Origin: Candidatus Gastranaerophilales bacterium
GTDB lineage: Bacteria; Cyanobacteriota; Vampirovibrionia; Gastranaerophilales; Gastranaerophilaceae
Assembly: GCA_910587245.1 (NCBI GenBank)
Contig: CAJULX010000010.1
Location: 5,069 to 69,068 of the forward strand
Length of the DNA stretch: 64,000 nucleotides
Direction of reading: 5' to 3'
The notes under the pieces are model-generated. The model had not been told where the DNA came from, did not search any database, and saw only the letters and a program-made list of their open reading frames with translations. The translations under genes and the position numbers were made by a program. This document shows positions 14,643 to 64,000 of this stretch, piece after piece (the first letter of the stretch is position 1; every line of letters begins with the position of its first letter).

Positions 14643-16493
<1,851 letters not shown>

Positions 16494-18575: not shown

Positions 18576-19841
18576 ATGTCAAGACCAATGACTATCACGG
18601 AAAAAATATTTGCAGCTCATGCCGGAAAAGATGAAGTAAAGGCGGGGGATTTAATAAGTGCCAAAGTTGATATTACGCTTGCGAATGATATCACGGGTCC
18701 TGTTGCAATTAACGAATTCAGAAAGATTGGTGTAGATAAAGTTTTTGACCCTGAAAGATGTGTTTTTGTTCCTGACCACTTTGTGCCCAATAAGGATATT
18801 AAATCTGCAGAGCAGGTTAATTTAATCAGAAAATTTGCACGTGAAATGAATTTGAAGTTCTTCTTTGAAGTAGGAAGAATGGGAATTGAACATGCGCTTT
18901 TGCCTGATTCAGGTATCGTTACCGCAGGAGATTTGATTATAGGAGCTGATTCGCACACCTGTACATACGGCGCTCTGGGTGCTTTTTCAACCGGTGTAGG
19001 TTCAACGGATTTGGCCTGTGCAATGGCTTCAGGAGAAACCTGGTTTAAAGTACCGAGTGCAATAAAGGTTGAATTTAACGGCAAATTAAATAAATGGGTA
19101 AGCGCCAAAGATTTGGTATTGCATTTAATAGGCGATATCGGTGTTGACGGTGCTTTATACAAAACTCTTGAAATAACGGGAAGTGCGATTTCCGAAATGC
19201 CTATGGACGGCAGATTTACCATATGCAATATGGCAATTGAAGCAGGGGCTAAAAACGGTATAATTCCGCCTGATAAAATTACGGAAGAATATTTAAAAGG
19301 CCGTTCAATAAGGCCGTATAAATTCTATACGTCTGACCCTGATGCTGAATACGAAAGAATTATTAAATATGATGTGGCTGATATTGAACCGACTGTTGCT
19401 TTTCCGCATTTGCCGGAAAATACAAAACCCATAAGTAAAGTGGGTAATGTTGAAATTAATCAGGTGGTAATCGGAAGCTGTACAAACGGAAGACTTTCCG
19501 ATTTGAAAATCGCAGCAGATATCTTAAGAGGTAAAAAGGTTCATAAAAATGTACGTTTAATTGTATTCCCCGGTACTCAGGATATTTATTTAAAAGCAAT
19601 TGAACTCGGGTATGTTCAGACGATAGTTGAAGCAGAAGGTGCTGTATCTACACCTACCTGCGGTCCGTGTCTCGGCGGTCATGCGGGTATTCTTGCCAAG
19701 GGTGAGCGTGCAGTTTCTACTACAAACAGAAACTTTGTAGGGCGTATGGGACATCCCGAATCTGAAGTATATCTTGCTTCTCCTGCCGTTGCAGCTGCAA
19801 GCGCTATTCTGGGAAGAATTGCAAGCCCTGAGGAATTATAA
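18576..19841 (+). CDS. aconitase-family dehydratase large subunit (LeuC/HacA type), copy 1
   Basis: 421 aa. GADSHTC, GSCTNGR and CGPCLG supply the Fe-S ligands. Confidence 0.85.
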
Positions 19842-19846
19842 TTGAA

Positions 19847-20701
19847 ATGAAAAAAAATATTCTGGCAATTCAAATGAGCTCTGTTATTGGAGACTTTAAA
19901 GCCAATTGCGATAAGGTTTCTGCTTTAGTTTCAAATTTTTACAATAATACACTGCCTTCAAAATTGCCAGATATTATTTTTCTGCCTGAGGTTTGGACAC
20001 TTGGCTGGCATACTGATTGCTTCAGAGAAAAAGCTCCGGAAAATTCAGGTGCAGTGGAATTTTTATCAAATATTGCAAAAAAATATGATGTAAATATTGT
20101 CGGTGGTTCTTATATAAGAAAAGAAAACGGTATTTATAAAAATTCCTGTCCCGTAATTAACCGCAAAGGCGAACTGTGTGCCATATATGATAAAATTCAT
20201 CTTTATTCGCCGGATGGCGAGGCGCGCGCCGTAGAATCAGGCAATACACCTTTAATTATTAATATTGAAGGGTTAAAAATCGGGCTTTCAATATGTTATG
20301 ATATAAGATTTCCAGAGCTGTTCAGAAGCTATATTGCAAGTGATAATAAGCCCGATATGCTTGTTAATCTTTCTGCATGGCCAAAGACAAGAAGAGAACA
20401 GTATGAAGCTATGGCAAAATCAAGAGCTGTTGAAAATCAATCGTATTTCCTTGCGCTTTCTCAAACAGGTTTAATAAAAGATGAAGTTTATAATTCAGGT
20501 TTTTCGATGCTTGCGGCGCCATTAGGGGAAACGCTCGCTGTTCTGGGTGAAGAAGAAGGCTTTATATTTGAAGCTATTGATACCGATATTTCCGATAATG
20601 TGTGCAAAACATATCCTAATCTTGAAAACAGAAAAGTGAATAATTTTGGATTTTACCCTGAATATATCGAAATTAAAGAATTAGGGGCGGTATCATGTTA
20701 A
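19847..20701 (+). CDS. carbon-nitrogen hydrolase (nitrilase superfamily)
   Basis: 284 aa. LPEVW (Glu) and ICYDIRFPE (Cys) provide the catalytic-triad context. Confidence 0.8.
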   Translation: MKKNILAIQMSSVIGDFKANCDKVSALVSNFYNNTLPSKLPDIIFLPEVWTLGWHTDCFREKAPENSGAVEFLSNIAKKYDVNIVGGSYIRKENGIYKNSCPVINRKGELCAIYDKIHLYSPDGEARAVESGNTPLIINIEGLKIGLSICYDIRFPELFRSYIASDNKPDMLVNLSAWPKTRREQYEAMAKSRAVENQSYFLALSQTGLIKDEVYNSGFSMLAAPLGETLAVLGEEEGFIFEAIDTDISDNVCKTYPNLENRKVNNFGFYPEYIEIKELGAVSC

Positions 20702-22098
20702 GAAAACTTTTTATTACCTGTTTGGTTTTTTTGAGTCTTTCTCTACAGTCTTTTGCATCTTTAAGTGCATCCATAAATGATGCTATTGATAATACGGGGC
20801 TCGGGCGCAATTCCGTAATTTCTGTTGTTGTTAAAGATTTAAACACAAATGAAACTCTTTATTCAAAACATCCAAATACTTATTTAAACCCCGCATCATC
20901 GTTAAAAGTTTTTACGACGGCTGCGGCTCTTGATACACTTGGAGATAAATACCATTTTGAAACCATAATATATATCGACACGGATAAAAATCTTTATTTA
21001 AAATTAGGTGCCGATCCTTTATTTACATCTGCAAATCTTGATGAACTTATTAAAACTTTAAAAAAAGTTTACACAGGAAAAATTAAGCATTTTTACATAG
21101 ATGATACCGTGATTGATAAGGTTTACTATCCTGATGGCTGGGCTGCAGATGATTTCTGGCCAAATTCTCCGAAGATTTCACCTTATATAATTGATGACAA
21201 TACGGTTACGGTTAATTTTTCCGTCTTAAAAGAAAAAAACGATATTAAAATATCTCAAAAAGATGATTATAAAATTTCTTTTATAAATGAACTTCAAATT
21301 TCAGATAAAACAAATATTACGCCTTCTTTGAATTATGGAGAAAACTCCGGCATAGTATCATTAAGGGGTACAATTTCGGGAGACTTAAATAAAGAATTTC
21401 CCGTGCTTGATACGGCACAGTTTTTTACATATAAATTAAGAAAAGCGCTTGATAATAACGGCATATCTTATTCAAAGCCTTTTTATCAAAAACGTGTGCC
21501 TGAAAATGCTAAAAGAATCGCATCCTACAGACGTCCAATCGGCGCAGTATTATCACATGTATTAAAAACAAGCGATAATTTTGCAGCTGAAGTTATATTT
21601 AAACTTGCAGGCGGTATTTGGGCAAAAAATGAAAACGAATACATAAAAAATGCTTATCAAGCCGATTTAACTTTAAATTCTGCAGGAACTCTTGAAAACG
21701 GCAGAAAAATGTTTTTTGATTACTATAAAAAAGCAGGCTTGATATCAGAAGATGATAAAATTAATCTTTCCGATGCATCAGGTGTTTCCAGATACAATGC
21801 TTTTACAACTTGCTGGATGGCTGATGTGCTTGCTTATCTTGATAAAAATTCAAAAATCAAAGATTATATGATAACGGCAGATGAAGGTACTTTGACAAGA
21901 AGAATGCGGGAATTAAAAGGCTCATTGCGTGCAAAAACCGGCACCATTTTCGGCGTGAGTTCTTTAACAGGATACTTAACTTCAAACAGCGGAAAAAATT
22001 ACGCTTTTTCTATAATAATTCAAAATTTTGGTGTACGTCCGTCTGTGGTTAAAGGGCTGGAAGATGATATAATATATGGAATATATTTTGCCGAATAG
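20695..22098 (+). CDS. dacB: D-alanyl-D-alanine carboxypeptidase/endopeptidase (PBP4, peptidase S13)
   Basis: 467 aa with a signal peptide and the ASSLK (SxxK), SDN and KTG motifs. Confidence 0.8.
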   Translation: MLRKLFITCLVFLSLSLQSFASLSASINDAIDNTGLGRNSVISVVVKDLNTNETLYSKHPNTYLNPASSLKVFTTAAALDTLGDKYHFETIIYIDTDKNLYLKLGADPLFTSANLDELIKTLKKVYTGKIKHFYIDDTVIDKVYYPDGWAADDFWPNSPKISPYIIDDNTVTVNFSVLKEKNDIKISQKDDYKISFINELQISDKTNITPSLNYGENSGIVSLRGTISGDLNKEFPVLDTAQFFTYKLRKALDNNGISYSKPFYQKRVPENAKRIASYRRPIGAVLSHVLKTSDNFAAEVIFKLAGGIWAKNENEYIKNAYQADLTLNSAGTLENGRKMFFDYYKKAGLISEDDKINLSDASGVSRYNAFTTCWMADVLAYLDKNSKIKDYMITADEGTLTRRMRELKGSLRAKTGTIFGVSSLTGYLTSNSGKNYAFSIIIQNFGVRPSVVKGLEDDIIYGIYFAE

Positions 22099-59155: not shown

Positions 59156-59422
59156 CTAAAGCCAAAACATATTGCGAACTGAACCAAAGTGCGTGTTTGT
59201 GTTGCTGCCGTCTGTCCACGTGGTAGCGCAGAACCTGCTCCAATACCATCCGCCTCCATTCAAGTAGTAAGCTGTATATGCCTTACCACCGTCTGTGCAG
59301 TTAGTGGTGTCGGTATAGGCCGTAGAAGACCATACGTGGTACGGGTTCCAAGCCTGCTTACTTGCGCTGATACCCTGGTTCGGACAGTGCGGCGTACCGC
59401 TCACGCTGGAGTTGTTACACAA
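59156..59422 (-). other. silent C-terminal cassette C1 (lectin-fold variable module)
   Basis: Encodes CNNSSVSGTPHCPNQGISASKQAWNPYHVWSST...FGSVR. There is no ATG (only a TTG), and no RBS or N-terminal pilin part. A 1-nt insertion before the 3' box changes CCFGF to NMFWL. Confidence 0.85.
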
Positions 59423-59478
59423 GTAATTGAGAGATTTCTTGTCTTTTATAATAAATTTTTCATTAAAAAGAAAACTTA

Positions 59479-59564
59479 AGCAATTTTTTGCTATCTCCCG
59501 ACGGGTTAGAAAAGTGCCTTAAATCTGTCTGTGCTCGTAAGCGCAAACACTCTTTTAAAGGCAC
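59479..59564 (-). repeat. inter-cassette structured element E1 (unclassified; candidate RNA or ssDNA fold)
   Basis: Minus-sense structure: P1 GUGCCUU/AAGGCAC, P2 GUUUGCGC-UUACGA-GCACAGAC, the 18-mer AACCCGUCGGGAGAUAGC, and P3 AGCAA/UUGCU. Confidence 0.6.
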
Positions 59565-59617
59565 TTTTAAAAAAGCAAAATATACTATAAAAATATAACA
59601 TAAAAAGAAACTTATTT

Positions 59618-59878
59618 TTATTCAAAGCCAAAACGACAACGAACTGAACCAAAGTGTGTCCAGCCATCAGTTTTCGTGGTAGCGCAGAACCAATTGACCG
59701 CCCAGGTGGTACCATCCAGATAGTGAGTCCTGTAAGCCGCCCCGCTGTCCGCGCAGTTACTGTGTGTATAGGGCGTAGAAGACCATACGTGGTACGGGTG
59801 GTGATTCTGCTTACTTGCGCTGATATACTGGTACGGACAGTGTGGTGTCGAGACATTTGTATTTTTGCCTCTAAAATT
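59618..59878 (-). other. silent C-terminal cassette C2
   Basis: The open frame has no Met: NVSTPHCPYQYISASKQNHHPYHVWSSTPYTHSNCADSG...THFGSVRCRFGFE. The ORF track only shows an out-of-frame ORF here. Confidence 0.85.
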
Positions 59879-59933
59879 TTAAGAAGAATTTTTTATTTTT
59901 CGTTAAATTTTTTAACAAAAAACCTTTATTTTA

Positions 59934-60019
59934 AGCAATCTTAATAAAAATTGCTATCTTCTGACGGGTTGAATCCCTTATCTGTCTGTATCCTTAAATA
60001 CAGACACTCTATTAGGGAT
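59934..60019 (-). repeat. inter-cassette structured element E2
   Basis: P1 AUCCCU/AGGGAU, P2 GUCUGUAU-UUAAGG-AUACAGAC, AACCCGUCAGAAGAUAGC, and P3 AGCAAU/AUUGCU. Confidence 0.6.
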
Positions 60020-60051
60020 AAAGTTTCTTTTTTTAAGATATAAACCTTTTT

Positions 60052-60285
60052 AAAGCCAAAACAACAACGAACTGACCCAAAGTGCGTGTAGCCATTGCTT
60101 GCCCACGTGGTAGCGCAGAACCCATTGATAGCCCAGCTCGTACCATCTAAGTACCAAGCGTAGTAAGCCTTACCGCTGTCCGTACAGTTACTGCTTGTAA
60201 AGGCCGTAGAAGACCATATATGGTTCGGGTGCTGATTCTGCTTACTTGCGCTGATACCCTGAGCCGGACAGTAAGATGTTGCATT
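60052..60285 (-). other. silent C-terminal cassette C3
   Basis: An in-frame TAA at 60286-60288 is followed by NATSYCPAQGISASKQNQHPNHIWSST...THFGSVRCCFGF. There is no Met. The frame stays open through the downstream element to 59941. Confidence 0.85.
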
Positions 60286-60344
60286 TTAAAAGAAGAATTC
60301 TTTTTTGGCAGGTAAAATTATTCACCTGTCAAACTATAATATTA

Positions 60345-60452
60345 AGCTGTAAAATCTCTTATAATTTTAATTTTACTGCTATCTTCCGACGGGTTAAAAA
60401 GCTCATAAATCTGCTGTTATCCTTAAATAACAGCACTCTTTTAAAATGAGCT
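60345..60452 (-). repeat. inter-cassette structured element E3
   Basis: P1 AGCUCAU/AUGAGCU, P2 GCUGUUAU-UUAAGG-AUAACAGC, AACCCGUCGGAAGAUAGC, and P3 AGCAGUAAAAU/AUUUUACAGCU. Confidence 0.6.
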
Positions 60453-60508
60453 TATAGGTTTATTTTGTATTAATTGCTTTTTACAATAAGTTATTTAGTT
60501 TTCAATTT

Positions 60509-60814
60509 TCATATTTTGTGAAACATATTTTCTTCAAAGCCAAAACTACAACGAACTGATCCAAAGTTTGTGTAGCCATTTGTATGCGTGGTAGCGCAGA
60601 ATCCGCCCAAACTCCAGCTCGTACCATTTAAGTTCCAAGCGTAGTAAGCCTTACCGCTGTCCGTACAGTTAGAAGTAGACCAACTATTTGTATAGGCCGT
60701 AGAAGTCCATATGTAGTTCGGATACTGGGCCTGCTTACTTGCGCTGATAAGCTGATGCGGACTGCTTTTACAGATTATAAAAGCTACACGGAAGAATTTT
60801 TCATTATTCTGCAA
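60509..60814 (-). other. silent C-terminal cassette C4 (homology 60536-60772)
   Basis: Encodes CKSSPHQLISASKQAQYPNYIWTST...NFGSVRCSFGF. It lacks about 8 codons (SVSGTPHC) of the 5' box. It shares 33 identical nt with the expressed gene. Confidence 0.85.
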
Positions 60815-60855
60815 ATTCTTTGCAAATTAATGTTCCTGAATTTTTAAGAATATTA

Positions 60856-60931
60856 AGCAATTTTTGCTATCCTCCGACGGGTTGAAGTTCCTTTACCTGC
60901 CTGTACCCGTAAGTACAAAACACTCAAAAGG
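60856..60931 (-). repeat. inter-cassette structured element E4
   Basis: P1 CCUUU/AAAGG, P2 UUUGUAC-UUACGG-GUACAGG (two G-U pairs in minus sense only), AACCCGUCGGAGGAUAGC, and P3 AGCAA/UUGCU. Confidence 0.6.
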
Positions 60932-60950
60932 CATGCTTCACATTTTGAAA

Positions 60951-61256
60951 TTAAGGCGACCTTATAAAGCCAAAACAACAACGAACTGACCCAAAGTGCG
61001 TGTAGCCGGGTTCCGTAGGGTGTGTGCTCACGATTGTGGTAGCGCAGAACCCGCCCAGAACCATGCTTGTACCATTCAAGCCGTAAGTGCGGTATGTTGT
61101 ACCGCCTGTGCAATTGGCAGTGTCAGTATAGGTCGTAGAAGTCCATATGTGGCTCGGCCACTGACTCTGCTTACTTGCGCTTATGTTCTGTGCCGGACAG
61201 TATGGTACACCGCTCACGATAGTGTGGCTACACCCACTTTGCGGAAGAATTTTTTT
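60951..61256 (-). other. silent C-terminal cassette C5
   Basis: Encodes GCSHTIVSGVPYCPAQNISASKQSQWPSHIWTSTTYTDTANCTGGTTYRT...HFGSVRCCFGF. It is the closest match to the variable part of the expressed gene. Confidence 0.85.
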
Positions 61257-61298
61257 TCATGACGGAAAATTTTTCCCGACCCAATTTTGCAATTATTA

Positions 61299-61385
61299 AG
61301 CAAATCTTTTTTGCTATCTTCCGACGGGTTATAAGGCGCTTGAATCTGTTTGTATCCTTAAATACAAACACTCCTTCATTTTGCC
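61299..61385 (-). repeat. inter-cassette structured element E5
   Basis: Split P1 (GGC..GAA / UUC..GCC), P2 GUUUGUAU-UUAAGG-AUACAAAC, AACCCGUCGGAAGAUAGC, and P3 AGCAAA/UUUGCU. Confidence 0.55.
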
Positions 61386-61395
61386 CTTTTATTCT

Positions 61396-61665
61396 AAAGC
61401 CAAAACGAAAACGAACTGAACCAAAGGTCGTGTAGCCTGGTGCTGTTGCGTTCGTGCTCGCATATGTGGTATCGCAGAACCAACCAAGCTTCATACTTGA
61501 GCCGTCCAGATACCAGATATGGTACGTAAGACCGCCACCACTACACTTGCTCGTGTCAATATAAGTCGTAGAAGACCATAAGTGGTTCGGGTACTGACGC
61601 TGCTTACTTGCGCTGATACCCTGTGACGGACAGTACGGTACATTGCCTGCACTAAGCTGTCGCAC
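61396..61665 (-). other. silent C-terminal cassette C6 (5'-truncated, abuts C7)
   Basis: Encodes NVPYCPSQGISASKQRQYPNHLWSST...TFGSVRFRFGF. It starts 15 nt after the C7 stop and has no leader element. The track ORF runs on through element E5. Confidence 0.8.
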
Positions 61666-61680
61666 TTTATACCGCCTTTG

Positions 61681-62028
61681 CTACTTTTTTATTCTAAAGC
61701 CAAAACAACAACGAACTGATCCAAAGTGCGTGTTGCCATTTGTGTTCGTGGTAGCGCAGAACCCATTGAGTGCCCAGCTCGTACCGTCTAAGCGCCAAGC
61801 GTAGTAAGCCTTACCGCTGTCCGTACAATTACTTGATGTATAGGCCGTAGAAGACCATATGTGGTTCGGGTACTGATTCTGCTTACTTGCGCTCGGCCAC
61901 TGTGCCGGACAGTACGGTATACCGCTCACGCTAGAGTAGCTACACCAGCTCATTTTAGAAGAATTTTCCTTCAAACCGATGAAATTTTCATCAGCTGAAG
62001 TTCCTGAATTTTCAAGAATATTAAGCAT
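61681..62028 (-). other. silent C-terminal cassette C7 (homology 61681-61947)
   Basis: Encodes WCSYSSVSGIPYCPAQWPSASKQNQYPNHIWSST...HFGSVRCCFGFRIKK. The core site is altered (GCTCGGCCAC instead of GCTGATACCC). Confidence 0.85.
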
Positions 62029-62121
62029 TTTTATGATTTACAAAAACTGCTATCTTCTGACGGGTTAGAATATACCTGAATGTCTGCCTGCGCCCTTGAG
62101 CACAGGCACTCTTTTTTCAGG
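62024..62121 (-). repeat. inter-cassette structured element E6
   Basis: P1 CCUGAA/UUCAGG, P2 GCCUGUGC-UCAAGG-GCGCAGGC (G-U in minus sense only), AACCCGUCAGAAGAUAGC, and P3 AGCAGUUUUU/AAAAAUGCU. Confidence 0.6.
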
Positions 62122-62270
62122 CTGATTTTTTTTAATTTTTTAGAAAAGTTTGGAAAAAAGTTAAGTTTTTATCGCTTTTTTATCTCCTCCTTTTTGTTAC
62201 AAAACTACATACAAGTCTGAATTTTTAGTTTTAACTCAACATGGCAAGAACTTTTTGTCTTTATAAAACT

Positions 62271-62492
62271 TTATCTTCCAAAGCCAAAACTACAACGAAC
62301 TGACCCATACTGCGTGTAGCCGGGTGCAGGTGTATACGTGCTCGCAAGCGTGGTAGCGCAGAACCCGCCTGCACCCCAGCTGGTACCATTCAAGCCGTAA
62401 GCGCGGTAAGCCGCGCTGCCTGTACAAACCTCCGTACTATAGGTCGTAGAAGTCCATACGTGGGCCAGGTGCTGTTTTTGTTTTTCCTCCAA
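62271..62492 (-). other. silent C-terminal cassette C8 (5' box degenerate)
   Basis: Encodes EEKQKQHLAHVWTSTTYSTEVCTGSAAYRAYGLNG...QYGSVRCSFGFGR. The ISASKQ core has been replaced. Confidence 0.8.
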
Positions 62493-62630
62493 AGTAAAAA
62501 TTGCTGAATTATTTTATTTTTACCATATAAAAGCCAAAGAATTAGAAACCAAATCAATAAACGTATCTTTATATCATTATTGAAAGGTTGCTCAAAATCC
62601 CATTTTTCTTTAATGAAATTTTGTGCCCTA

Positions 62631-62706
62631 AGCCCCACAGGGAGCTATCTTTGGACGGGTTGAAAAATCTTCTCTGTTAACACCCTTAAGCATTAACACT
62701 CCAAGA
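62631..62706 (-). repeat. inter-cassette structured element E7
   Basis: P1 is short (UCUU/AAGA). P2 is GUUAAUGC-UUAAGG-GUGUUAAC with two G-U pairs. The 18-mer is AACCCGUCCAAAGAUAGC. P3 is AGCUCC/GGGGCU. Confidence 0.55.
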
Positions 62707-62923
62707 AATAAAGTTTTACATTTTAGTACTTTAGCCCTTTTAACGCGTTTAGTCAATATTCTTCACAAAATGTTACATTATTGAAAATAGATTTCAATAT
62801 GGTATACTTCATAAAAGAAAAGTTGGAAAACATTTTTGATGTTTCTCGCTTATGTGCGCGGGAAATATTTAAAAAAGTTAAGTTGTTTTATCGTAAATAG
62901 TTTACACAAGGTTACATGTAAGT

Positions 62924-64000
62924 ATGAAAAAAGTTATTTTTTCGCATGCCAAAAATATTGCATGCAAAAATTGCGGCTCAAAACGTCGCAAAGCATTTTC
63001 ACTTGTTGAAATGCTGATGGCTCTTCTGGTAGCTTCGTTATTGCTTGCGGCTCTTGCCCCTGTAATGACAAGAAAAATGACAGAGGATAAAGTCAATGTT
63101 TCGGGTAGTTTAACTGACAGTATCTACCATGAGTACAAGGTTTTTACAAACCTCACAACAGGAGATGGCAATAGTGCTAATAAAGAGTACGAATTCGAAT
63201 TTCCACCAAACACCGATGAAACGGATGCTACGAGATTCGGTGCGATTATAGTTGCAGGGGGTGGCGGAGGTGCCGGCGCAGCTGCTTCTGATGTCAGAGG
63301 GCCAAAAACCCTTTCTTTTAATCAGGGCAATGCGGGAGGCTCTACCTCTTCTACAACAAGCGCTGTGTCATTGCCTTCGTATACCGATTACAGATTTAAC
63401 AGGTATACGGATTCAATAAAGCTGACTATTGTTAGCGGCGCAGGCGGCGGCGGCGGCGGAAACGGCGTGACTAAGACGGAAACACCGGAACTTAGTCAAT
63501 CCGTTTGCGCGGGCTATGGTATGGGAAAAACAGATACCACGGGGCATGTTGGTACTGTTAATTCTCCGCTTATCGTCTACGATTCAGCTAATAATATGTG
63601 CGTCTCAGCGTATAATCAGATTTCTTCAGGTACAAGGACTTCTCCAAGTCCGAGCCAGCCATATTGTACAACCTATTCATACAGTGGTTTTTCTACGCCG
63701 ATTTGTATGAAAGATGGTGCGTTTAATGCGTGCAACGCATTTAAGACGGCCATGGGCGGAAATATGAATTGGAGATTGCCTACGCAGACTGAGCAGTCAA
63801 AATGGACAGCGACGTTTGTTGGAAGAACAATTGCGGCAGGCGGTCTAGGTGGGTGTAACCACTCCAGCGTGAGCGGTACACCGCACTGTCCGCATCAGCT
63901 TATCAGCGCAAGTAAGCAGGTTCACGATCCGTACCACATATGGTCTTCTACGACCTATACTGACACTGCCTTTTGCACAGGCGGTACGACATACCGCACT
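62924..64000 (+). CDS. type IV prepilin-like surface protein with Gly-rich middle region and DUF1566/FISUMP-like lectin-fold C-terminus (3' end beyond window)
   Basis: An ATG at 62924 opens a frame with no stop for 359 codons to the window end. It is missing from the ORF track because no stop is reached. The N-terminus KAFSLVEMLMALLVASLLLAALAP is a prepilin cleavage/methylation-type segment. AGGGGGAGA and SGAGGGGGGNG are glycine tracts. NWRLPTQTEQSKW is the DUF1566/FISUMP hallmark. From 63851 onward the gene is homologous to cassettes C1-C8. Confidence 0.85.
   Translation, partial: MKKVIFSHAKNIACKNCGSKRRKAFSLVEMLMALLVASLLLAALAPVMTRKMTEDKVNVSGSLTDSIYHEYKVFTNLTTGDGNSANKEYEFEFPPNTDETDATRFGAIIVAGGGGGAGAAASDVRGPKTLSFNQGNAGGSTSSTTSAVSLPSYTDYRFNRYTDSIKLTIVSGAGGGGGGNGVTKTETPELSQSVCAGYGMGKTDTTGHVGTVNSPLIVYDSANNMCVSAYNQISSGTRTSPSPSQPYCTTYSYSGFSTPICMKDGAFNACNAFKTAMGGNMNWRLPTQTEQSKWTATFVGRTIAAGGLGGCNHSSVSGTPHCPHQLISASKQVHDPYHIWSSTTYTDTAFCTGGTTYRT
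63443..63457 (+). repeat. (GGC)5 trinucleotide repeat inside the pilin-like gene
   Basis: GGCGGCGGCGGCGGC encodes part of the SGAGGGGGGNG tract. Confidence 0.9.

Follow-up and report, generated by a model that had tools for sequence, protein, structure and literature searches.

DGRs are usually viewed as acting from one template on one or a few targets, with diversity generated only by adenine randomization, and cassette systems are viewed as DNA-recombination devices. With DGRs of the CLec2/DUF1566 class (Legionella pneumophila LdtA; prototype, Bordetella phage BPP-1), the locus described here shares Avd and a reverse transcriptase (RT) with the IGxxxSQ motif, one-way transfer from an invariant template to a variable region (VR), adenine-specific substitutions, a VR that ends in ...VRCV and would form the C-terminal part of a DUF1566/Lcl_C-type domain, a structured RNA beside the template and a surface-displayed target. 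It departs from them in several respects. About 29 templates stand in two arrays instead of one template repeat (TR) adjoining the RT; these flank the target on either side in the opposite orientation to it, with a leader 5′ of template groups. The VR is a mosaic of four to eight templates, indels included, and is internal to an 853-aa protein instead of C-terminal, and the rate of A substitution is low and A>G-skewed.

With the vlsE/vls system of Borrelia burgdorferi, the locus has in common one expression site whose variable cassette region is central, an uninterrupted silent array that adjoins that site in inverted orientation, and random segmental one-way conversion in short tracts that leaves the archive unchanged. 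The vls locus, however, is without RT or Avd. Switching of vlsE requires RuvAB and the MutL nuclease (PMC2779866, PMC9159922). Neither untemplated changes specific to adenines nor leader RNAs have been described for vls. The pilE/pilS system of Neisseria and tprK of Treponema pallidum likewise combine a pilin-like or surface protein with mosaic copying from promoterless partial copies; pilin variation in Neisseria requires RecA and a G-quadruplex, involves no retroelement and draws on dispersed silent loci. Unlike in these systems, the variable part of our locus is one internal block of 82 codons with sharply conserved borders.

Here, we analyzed the locus in a 64,000-nt stretch of Candidatus Gastranaerophilales DNA (the window), together with assemblies of the same and related species. 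The most probable reading (roughly 0.6) is that the locus is a DGR of unusual build, in which an archive of about 29 templates takes the place of the single TR. Searches of the openly accessible literature returned no description of a DGR whose templates form arrays or whose VR is a mosaic, nor of the combination of a mosaic VR, adenine-specific changes and an adjacent DGR-type RT.

Results

Silent cassettes flank a single expression site

The mouse-gut locus comprises about 29 non-identical silent cassettes and one full-length target gene. The target gene is the only expression site, and the cassettes are partial copies that probably lack a promoter. Eight of them precede the target gene within the window (Table 1). 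The remaining 21 lie downstream, outside the window, and are followed by the genes for bAvd and the RT, which stand at the end of this array in all complete loci. All cassettes have the orientation of the avd and RT genes, opposite to that of the target gene. The 29 cassettes form 14 groups, and a structured leader is located 5′ of each group. Spacers between cassettes are AT-rich. In some MAGs, the downstream array is collapsed or interrupted by N-gaps.

Table 1. Features of the locus within the window; C1, C4 and C5 are cassette names used in the first-pass annotation.
Feature	Position	Strand	Remarks
Target gene, 5′ part (aa 1–359)	62924..64000	+	ORF and translation; continues beyond the window
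VR, first 149 of ~255 nt	63852..64000	+	End equivalent to window position 64106; first variable base 63858–63860
Leader A, 5′ of S22	62533..62723	-	Degenerate motif AACCCGTCCAAAGATAGCT at 62643–62661; box TCTTTGG compensates the motif change
Silent cassette S22	62291..62537	-	5′-truncated; VR homology from about 62475; donor of 49 nt (copying model)
Leader B, 5′ of S23	61955..62128	-	Motif 62048–62066; source of the weak Rfam RT-7 hit
Silent cassette S23	61707..61946	-	Leader-adjacent; donor of 224 nt over 13 VRs (copying model)
Silent cassette S24	61407..61666	-	Second of its group; within a 145-aa gene in MAG annotations
Leader C, 5′ of S25	61240..61392	-	Motif 61312–61330
Silent cassette S25 (C5)	60977..61234	-	Donor of the last 56 nt of the window VR
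Leader D, 5′ of S26	60788..60945	-	Motif 60865–60883
Silent cassette S26 (C4)	60547..60789	-	Donor of the 33-nt tract
Leader E, 5′ of S27	60289..60457	-	Motif 60377–60395
Silent cassette S27	60063..60305	-	
Leader F, 5′ of S28	59880..60032	-	Motif 59952–59970
Silent cassette S28	59635..59874	-	
Leader G, 5′ of S29	59427..59569	-	Motif 59489–59507; GGGAGAT pairs with box ATCTCTC
Silent cassette S29 (C1)	59170..59421	-	Last of the upstream array

The RT is a 447-aa RVT_1 protein (19540–20883 on the minus strand of locus L004). With IGNLTSQ and YVDD, it contains both the DGR-type RT motif 4, [LIV]GxxxSQ, and the catalytic YxDD. NCBIfam gave only sub-threshold matches for this protein, to models of group II intron, retron and Drt RTs. 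The 125-aa ORF directly upstream of the RT has a precomputed Pfam hit to PF22296 (bAvd), and NCBIfam DivGenRetAVD matched it with E = 2.4e-12 and 47 bits, below the 80-bit cut-off.

The variable region is internal to a pilin-like protein

The complete target gene (L004, 10001–12562) encodes a protein with a prepilin-type N-terminus (KAF/SLVEMLMALLV), glycine-rich domains and an Lcl_C/DUF1566-like domain. Pfam N_methyl matched over its cut-off (23.5 bits), Gly_rich_2 fell marginally below its own (24.2 versus 24.3 bits), and NCBIfam IV_pilin_GFxxxE also matched. The Pfam match to Lcl_C (formerly DUF1566) at aa 260–347 is weak (E = 0.003, under the curated cut-off). Weak matches to this domain define the CLec2 class, 'category d', among DGR targets (PMC5758913).

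The VR corresponds to aa 312–393 of the 853, and constant sequence restarts at ...FGSVRCV/LGAEPTQ; the variable stretch, which the first-pass annotation had placed at the C-terminus, is therefore internal. Its end, ...FGSVRCV, is like that of CLec2 VRs (PMC5758913) but stands in mid-protein. Divergence at the DNA level sets in at position 15717 of L001, equivalent to window position 63858. In an IMH/IMH* comparison, the VR and the cassettes are common up to ...TTTGGNTCAGTTCGTTGTG and diverge beyond it. A 7-bp GC hairpin is located about 57 nt 3′ of the VR, with a fold no better than that of shuffled sequence (z = −0.17). When an AlphaFold (AF2) model of the VR domain (pLDDT 73) was compared with the PDB by Foldseek, no match was significant and none was below E = 0.04; a sequence search of the PDB gave no match. 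The VR would lie inside the Lcl_C/DUF1566-like domain and is probably a ligand-binding or antigenic surface.

Variation among assemblies is confined to the variable region

Thirteen assemblies of the same species, all of them short-read MAG consensus sequences, were compared. Outside the VR, and with all 29 cassettes included, they differ by 0–2 SNPs over 22.5 kb, apart from two array-length differences; inside the VR of about 255 nt, 80–99 alignment columns differ between assemblies. Relative to L004, for example, L006 and L007 have one or two differing sites outside the VR and 80–89 alignment columns inside it over the 22.5 kb. Collinear arrays were found in all 10 loci that are complete or almost so. 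At the protein level, 16 variants are 100% identical outside aa 312–393. The VR variants carry indels, which are matched by different cassettes. Transfer is supported as one-way, with the cassettes invariant and the expression site changing. Hypervariability as a trait of the whole protein family was ruled out by the P0014 cluster, a 30% identical homologue, in which the 10 members examined have seven scattered variable sites and no VR.

The VR could also be a chimera, assembled as the consensus of several coexisting variants or of silent-cassette reads, a reading that draws on the short-read origin of all the data and on the collapsed and N-gapped downstream arrays of some MAGs. We regard such an assembly artefact as very improbable: 30 distinct full-length variants each have an intact reading frame, the constant flanks were assembled perfectly, and a chimera of true variants would itself imply real mosaics. 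The tracts described below, at 6–60 nt, do not reach the usual length of assembly k-mers, so the reads themselves must contain k-mers that span the junctions, and the A>N changes match no cassette and are therefore not derived from mis-joined cassette reads.

The expressed region is a mosaic of silent cassettes

The first-pass annotation had described the expressed copy as a patchwork of exact matches to different cassettes, and these matches were reproduced. Positions 63861–63879 (19 nt), 63888–63920 (33 nt) and 63945–63970 (26 nt) are the reverse complements of 59394–59412, 60730–60762 and 61116–61141, respectively, and two further blocks, TGCACAGGCGGTAC (14 nt) and ACATACCGCACT (12 nt), are identical to 61099–61112 and 61086–61097. 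The donor of the first tract has to be reassigned from S29 to S09 of the downstream array, which matches exactly over 26 nt instead of 19 nt; S29 was never picked as a donor by the copying model across 13 VRs. Positions 63921–63936 (VHDPYH) have no exact copy within the window, as had been noted, and correspond to S09 with three changes, every one at a donor adenine. An alternative parse of this stretch takes 6 nt of S11 followed by S09.

The copying model resolved each of the 13 VRs into 4–8 tracts from different cassettes of both arrays, with 5–10 mismatches left. In these VRs, no single cassette accounts for any one VR, and the variants are about 97% explainable as cassette segments, as the first-pass annotation expected of population variants; about 3% of VR positions are without a cassette template. 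S26 is the donor used most overall (776 nt), the RT-proximal S01 is one among 21 donors, and S18, whose group has no trailing leader, is a clear donor. In a leave-one-out control, silent cassettes required medians of 16 tracts and 24 mismatches; because they need more of both, mosaicism is a property of the expression site. An alignment-free measure gave the same picture: in 8 expressed VRs, 78% of positions lie in exact matches of at least 25 nt to a silent cassette, compared to a mean of 16% and a maximum of 50% for silent cassettes against one another. Silent cassettes are thus not mosaics of each other, and generic concerted evolution among repeats, against which the first-pass annotation had set donation to the expression site, is ruled out by the two controls. 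A classical single-TR DGR was also rejected, as no cassette, S01 included, explains a VR and the variants have indels.

Mosaic tracts this short are beyond the reach of a single crossover, as originally argued, and inversion is likewise excluded. A site-specific inversion shufflon of the R64 pilV or Moraxella piv type would suit cassettes inverted relative to a pilin-like gene; its probability is negligible, given tracts that are internal and far below cassette length, arrays that stay collinear and base-identical (bar the two length differences) while the VR varies, and no recombinase domain among the called genes of the 22.5-kb locus. The comparison with gene conversion in pilE, vlsE and tprK holds for the pattern. 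As a mechanism, gene conversion as in pilE or vlsE is probably wrong, given the adjacent bAvd and DGR-type RT and the adenine-specific residue described next.

Residual changes are adenine specific

Mismatches that remained after copying were concentrated at donor adenines (70 of 101 in the 13 VRs, with 31 at other bases). The rates were 9.2% of A sites and 1.3% of non-A sites (Fisher p = 4e-22, a value that overstates independence because the sequences are MAG consensus sequences and some VRs, L005/L018 and L019/L020, are related). The spectrum at donor A comprises 48 A>G, 17 A>T and 5 A>C. Silent cassettes analyzed as a control displayed no adenine bias, with 24% of mismatches at A, and a check independent of the copying model gave 21 A, 7 T, 0 G and 0 C. 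The single base that distinguishes L005 from L018 is located at a donor A. Adenine-specific changes of this kind are a signature of DGR reverse transcription rather than of homologous recombination.

The two features of the VR could also have separate origins. Homologous-recombination gene conversion would then make the mosaic from cassette DNA, and Avd–RT would add adenine mutations by another route, for instance by reverse transcription of the target's own mRNA or of one privileged cassette. A mosaic, one-way, archive-preserving pattern is the output of known gene-conversion systems, and an inverted array beside the expression site resembles that of Borrelia vls. The adenine bias alone cannot tell cassette RNA from target mRNA as the template because both have the same sense, and the per-site rate of A mutation, about 9%, is low. 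Well-studied DGRs have higher per-site adenine rates and a flatter spectrum than the A>G-skewed one found here. Against separate origins, A changes occur in tracts of 10 different donors from both arrays (first 8 VRs), and both the changes and the tracts end where cassette homology ends. At tract junctions, neighboring donors are identical over a median of just 6 nt, and RecA-type exchange usually needs more. To our knowledge, every DGR that mutates a VR does so by template-directed replacement of it, which also counts against this alternative. We consider it unlikely overall, also in view of the leaders.

Each cassette group has a structured, covarying leader

The leader motif is present in 7 copies in the window, compared to 0.02 expected, and in 14 copies in the locus, the first of which is embedded in the 3′ end of the RT gene. 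Compensatory changes were found at 13 of the 18 pairs of the leader hairpin. In addition, the motif pairs with a box immediately 5′ of the first cassette of the group to form a long-range helix; own motif–box pairs scored 284, and permutation of the pairs gave 251.8 ± 7 (P about 5e-5). That every cassette group has such a covarying, RT-associated leader, conserved across species, argues against separate origins of mosaic and adenine changes, as do the invariable orientation of the cassettes with the RT and the 84% of copied nucleotides that come from the 14 leader-adjacent cassettes (copying model, 13 VRs).

The leader matched the Rfam family RT-7 (RF03028) with 25.5 bits and E = 0.005–0.013, short of the gathering threshold of 116.8; the alignment is confined to the model's 5′ half and 3′ end, and about 110 nt of the model are missing. 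In common with the 5′ half of RT-7 it has AGAGU-hairpin(CAAGG loop)-AGA...AUUC..UAACCC. RT-7 and RT-10 are, like the leader, structured RNAs beside bacterial RT genes, although the leader is repeated 14 times per locus instead of occurring once. RT-10 is the spacer of the BPP-1 DGR. Further RT motifs have been speculated to function in DGRs (PMC5737381). A scan of metagenome contigs for the leader motif returned only eight chance hits in unrelated coding contexts, and viral contigs gave none. The leader may serve in RT–Avd recruitment, in priming or in setting the template boundary. In the characterized Bordetella-phage DGR, priming takes place from the spacer 3′ of the template, whereas the leader here is 5′ of the cassettes.

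The arrangement recurs in related species

Two loci with an RT 92% identical to that of the main locus (L009 and L010) have arrays like it. A third (L011) has Avd, RT and at least eight cassettes of a different sequence family, and another (L017) combines Avd and RT with a pilin-like target in inverted orientation and at least 26 cassettes, with a leader match of E about 4e-7 and two leaders only for its 27 cassettes. The adenine test was tried on L017, in which the VR could not be tiled from the strongly diverged cassettes and the array runs past the end of the locus. In the P0003 species, the only two variable residues are both within the VR.

These loci bear on a purely recombinational form of antigenic variation, in which the RT and Avd would be unrelated neighbors and the adenine bias would have some other cause. 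Cassette architecture and mosaic tracts are what such a system would leave. Synteny of Avd, RT, array and target nevertheless recurs with RTs that are 64–92% identical and with different cassette families, a copy of the leader motif lies inside the 3′ end of the RT gene, and the bias (p = 4e-22) is A specific, strand specific and absent from the silent-cassette control. We therefore assign this explanation little probability.

Discussion

Within the reading of the locus as a multi-template DGR, we slightly favor RT-driven segmental 'gene conversion', in which an Avd–RT complex copies leader-tagged cassette RNA and writes mosaic, adenine-mutagenized cDNA into one site. The cassette RNA would be the template and the RT the maker of the mosaic. 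Cassette RNA would be converted to cDNA by the complex, with occasional misincorporation opposite template adenines, and cDNA tracts of several cassettes would replace portions of the 255-nt VR. Several cassettes may be combined because the RT switches between templates or because partial homing events follow one another. The outcome would be a near-unlimited set of mosaic, point-mutated variants, with the archive left unchanged.

If this is correct, cassette shuffling and mutagenic retrohoming have been merged in a gut lineage of Melainabacteria. The sequence space open to a retroelement would be widened beyond adenine-encoded codons to indels and whole sub-loops, and template switching by the RT or partial cDNA integration would be a normal part of homing. 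Such a locus would also offer a natural multi-template design for DGR-based directed-evolution tools. Because standard DGR finders are tuned to a single TR/VR pair that differs at adenines only, they probably miss loci of this kind, and cassette-type antigenic variation loci of other uncultured bacteria may be retroelement driven.

For the Gastranaerophilales, the analysis identifies a rapidly varying, pilus-associated surface protein. Among near-clonal mouse-gut genomes, the divergence of its VR is more than 1,000 times that of the remaining locus, which points to a strong diversifying pressure, be it host IgA, phage or changing ligands.

Variation is confined to an internal region of a pilin-like gene

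Public assemblies of the same organism, all Candidatus Gastranaerophilales (Melainabacteria) mouse-gut MAGs, were found by way of a neighbouring gene and of target-protein variants. The target gene has a prepilin-type N-terminus, continues past the window end and encodes 853 amino acids. With the full gene from other assemblies, the 150 nt that the first-pass annotation had placed at the C-terminus proved to be the first part of an internal variable region (VR, amino acids 312–393). Among 16 protein variants, every residue outside amino acids 312–393 was identical, and heavy differences, indels included, lay inside. Relative to the reference locus L004, assemblies L006 and L007 carried 1 and 2 SNPs, respectively, across ~22,300 bp outside the VR, versus 89 and 80 differences in ~265 alignment columns of the VR, a more than thousandfold difference in divergence. 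All 29 silent cassettes (S01–S29) were invariant across assemblies, the eight in the window being base-identical to the L004 copies, and the locus was otherwise near-identical. With change confined to the VR, inversion shuffling is therefore ruled out, and transfer is one-way into a single expression site.

Apart from this, the assemblies differed only in array length (L008) and in one stretch that assembled poorly. L008 lacks 1283 bp (about four cassettes) of the downstream array, with one SNP in the rest of the locus; the cause is either genuine length polymorphism between repeat units or collapse during assembly. The S14–S16 region is hard to assemble from short reads: it contains Ns in L001, is shorter or divergent in L005, and gene positions in L018–L022 are shifted in the same manner as in L005. 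The cassette count of 29 therefore rests on L004, L006 and L007. A 145-amino-acid gene in the MAG annotations is S24 with its frame continued into the next spacer and leader, hence a miscall and not a real protein gene.

At ~850 amino acids the target protein far exceeds structural pilin size, which points to a pilin-like adhesin that is minor or located at the tip. In its predicted prepilin cleavage site, position −1 is Ala (RRKA/FSLVEM, cut after A), where Gly is usual. A GC-rich hairpin ~57 nt downstream of the VR recalls the target-recognition hairpin of other diversity-generating retroelements (DGRs) (PMC3240598) and is statistically no different from shuffled sequence. Between the target gene 3′ end and S21, the last downstream cassette, lies a perfect 15-bp palindromic hairpin that surfaced solely as spurious mir-3926 matches on both strands and is probably a bidirectional terminator separating convergent units.

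Features of the locus and its relatives (window or window-equivalent numbering unless a locus is named)
Feature	Position	Strand	Remarks
Eight partial copies of a ~80-codon module	59170–62537	minus	window, upstream of target gene
145-aa gene call	61228–61665; e.g. L001 13087–13524	minus	
Target gene start	62924	plus	
Predicted prepilin cleavage site	62924–63000	plus	
GC-rich hairpin GGCTCC-GGA-GGAGCC	64148–64168; L004 11225–11245		inside target gene
15-bp palindromic hairpin	65583–65619; L004 12660–12696		
21 further cassettes	downstream of target gene, past window	all minus	public assemblies
S14–S16 stretch	L004 ~14645–14890; L001 ~19430–19530		
Segment absent from L008	70476–71758; L004 17553–18835		
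Reverse transcriptase (RT), 447 aa	after downstream cassettes	minus, as cassettes	IGNLTSQ (DGR hallmark) and YVDD
bAvd, 125 aa	after downstream array, with RT	minus	Avd model match below its cut-off
Orphan leader copy	L011 5561–5664	plus	78.7 bits, E = 3e-17
Split target gene	L017 12521–12716	minus	

The VR is a mosaic of silent cassettes

The three exact matches reported earlier (to S29, S26 and S25) and two further short blocks were all in place, every one to minus-strand copies. A copying model on a MAFFT alignment (mismatch cost 3, switch cost 4) resolved each of 13 VRs into 4–8 tracts drawn from both arrays, with 5–10 leftover mismatches. Silent cassettes modelled from the other 28 required 16 tracts and left 24 mismatches (medians), and exact matches of at least 25 nt spanned 78% of VR positions versus 16% in silent cassettes. 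Silent copies are thus far less mosaic than the VR, contrary to what generic exchange among all copies would give. The window VR follows S09 (36 nt), S26 (33), S11 (6), S09 (18) and S25 (56); the VHDPYH stretch, which has no exact donor in the window, equals S09 with three changes, each at a donor adenine.

Tract junctions share a median of 6 nt of identity (range 0–22), which fits RT template switching or patchy heteroduplex repair better than RecA-type exchange but is not decisive. It weighs to that extent against the main rival explanation, which we consider unlikely, that homologous recombination builds the mosaic and the RT has a separate mutagenic role.

Residual changes fall mostly at donor adenines

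Leftover mismatches in the 13 VRs lay at a donor A on the cassette sense strand in 70 of 101 cases (48 A>G, 17 A>T, 5 A>C; G>A, the opposite change, was seen 4 times), a rate of 9.2% at A sites versus 1.3% at others (Fisher p = 4e-22). The silent-cassette control was flat (24% at A). Counting, without the copying model, single-base interruptions lying between exact matches of at least 15 nt to a single cassette gave 21 at A, 7 at T and none at G or C. Among the 8 VRs analysed first, A changes fell in tracts of 10 donors from both arrays; the L005, L008 and L018 VRs had A-site mismatches only, and those of L005 and L018 differ at a single base, a donor A. Strand- and adenine-specific change against an invariant template is the defining mark of DGR reverse transcription (PMC3240598, PMC7826257). 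Cassette RNA has the same sense as target mRNA, so the bias by itself is also compatible with separate roles for recombination and RT and cannot alone decide against them.

A conserved leader precedes every cassette group

A ~150-nt minus-strand leader lies 5′ of every cassette group (7 copies in the window versus 0.02 expected; 14 in the locus, the first a half-copy forming the final codons of the RT gene). It comprises AGAGUG, a hairpin with a UUAAGG loop, AUUCU-AACCCGUCAGAAGAUAGCAG, a second hairpin and GCUUAA; of the 18 pairs predicted in the first hairpin, 13 show compensatory changes. A motif core, RGRAGR, is predicted to pair with a box, YCUYCY, which sits at nearly the same place each time, 0–25 nt 5′ of the group's first cassette. 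The two covary (AGAAGA/UCUUCU, GGAAGA/UCUUCC, AGGAGG/CCUCC, AGAAGG/CCUUCU, CCAAAGA/UCUUUGG and GGGAGAU/AUCUCUC), and own pairs scored 284 versus 251.8 ± 7.0 for permuted pairs (reached in 0 of 20,000 permutations). Leader-adjacent cassettes number 14 of 29, yet supply 84% of copied nucleotides. The leader aligns weakly (25.5 bits) with the 5′ half of Rfam RT-7, an RT-associated motif; the motif authors speculated that some such motifs act in DGRs (PMC5737381).

Relatives L009 and L010 (RT 92% identical) have the same arrays. L017 encodes Avd, RT and an inverted pilin-like target with WRLPT...VR and carries at least 26 cassettes, and the leader covariance model matched 5′ of its arrays (E about 4e-7), although the RT is only 64% identical. 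In L011, Avd and RT are directly followed by at least eight cassettes from another sequence family, rich in Cys, and the model matched there too. L011 also carries a strong orphan leader copy 4.4 kb upstream of avd-RT, off the cassette array. The L017 target is split at the VR end into overlapping ORFs of 407 and 480 amino acids; either a frameshift has inactivated the expression site, or this hypervariable sequence was misassembled.

A 71%-identical homologue from another species occurs as three variants (P0003, P0129 and P0130) differing at two residues, 394 (I/V) and 398 (Y/H), both within the VR-equivalent region; that system may be much less active, or sampling thin. A 30%-identical homologue (263 contigs in public data) showed no hypervariability among the 10 members of the P0014 cluster examined.

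A probable retroelement with many templates

Given the observed VR-confined variation, the mosaic with its control, the adenine signature, the leader and its conservation, we put the probability that the locus is a retroelement of the DGR family drawing on a library of templates at roughly 0.6. Cassette RNAs, probably one transcript per leader, would be reverse-transcribed by Avd–RT with occasional misincorporation at adenines, and cDNA of several cassettes would replace parts of the VR within limits set by the conserved blocks GGTGGGTGTA and TTTGGNTCAGTTCGTTGTG. The template-library reading leaves unaccounted for the leader's position 5′ of the cassettes, the use of S18 as a donor although no leader trails it, the low rate and A>G skew of mutation, and 31 leftover mismatches off adenine.

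The locus resembles vlsE and pilE in pattern, and the proposed conversion of that type holds for the mosaic; its mechanism is probably different, given the adjacent Avd–RT and the adenine bias. With DGRs it shares the enzymes, transfer direction and adenine signature, and a weak, below-cut-off domain match suggests a DUF1566/CLec2-type target as well (PMC5758913), but it departs from the canonical layout with a single template repeat. Neither template arrays nor mosaic VRs were described for DGRs in the literature searched, including a 2018 survey of 372 DGRs, although papers beyond the searchable set are possible. There is a substantial chance that the locus represents a distinct mode of diversification.
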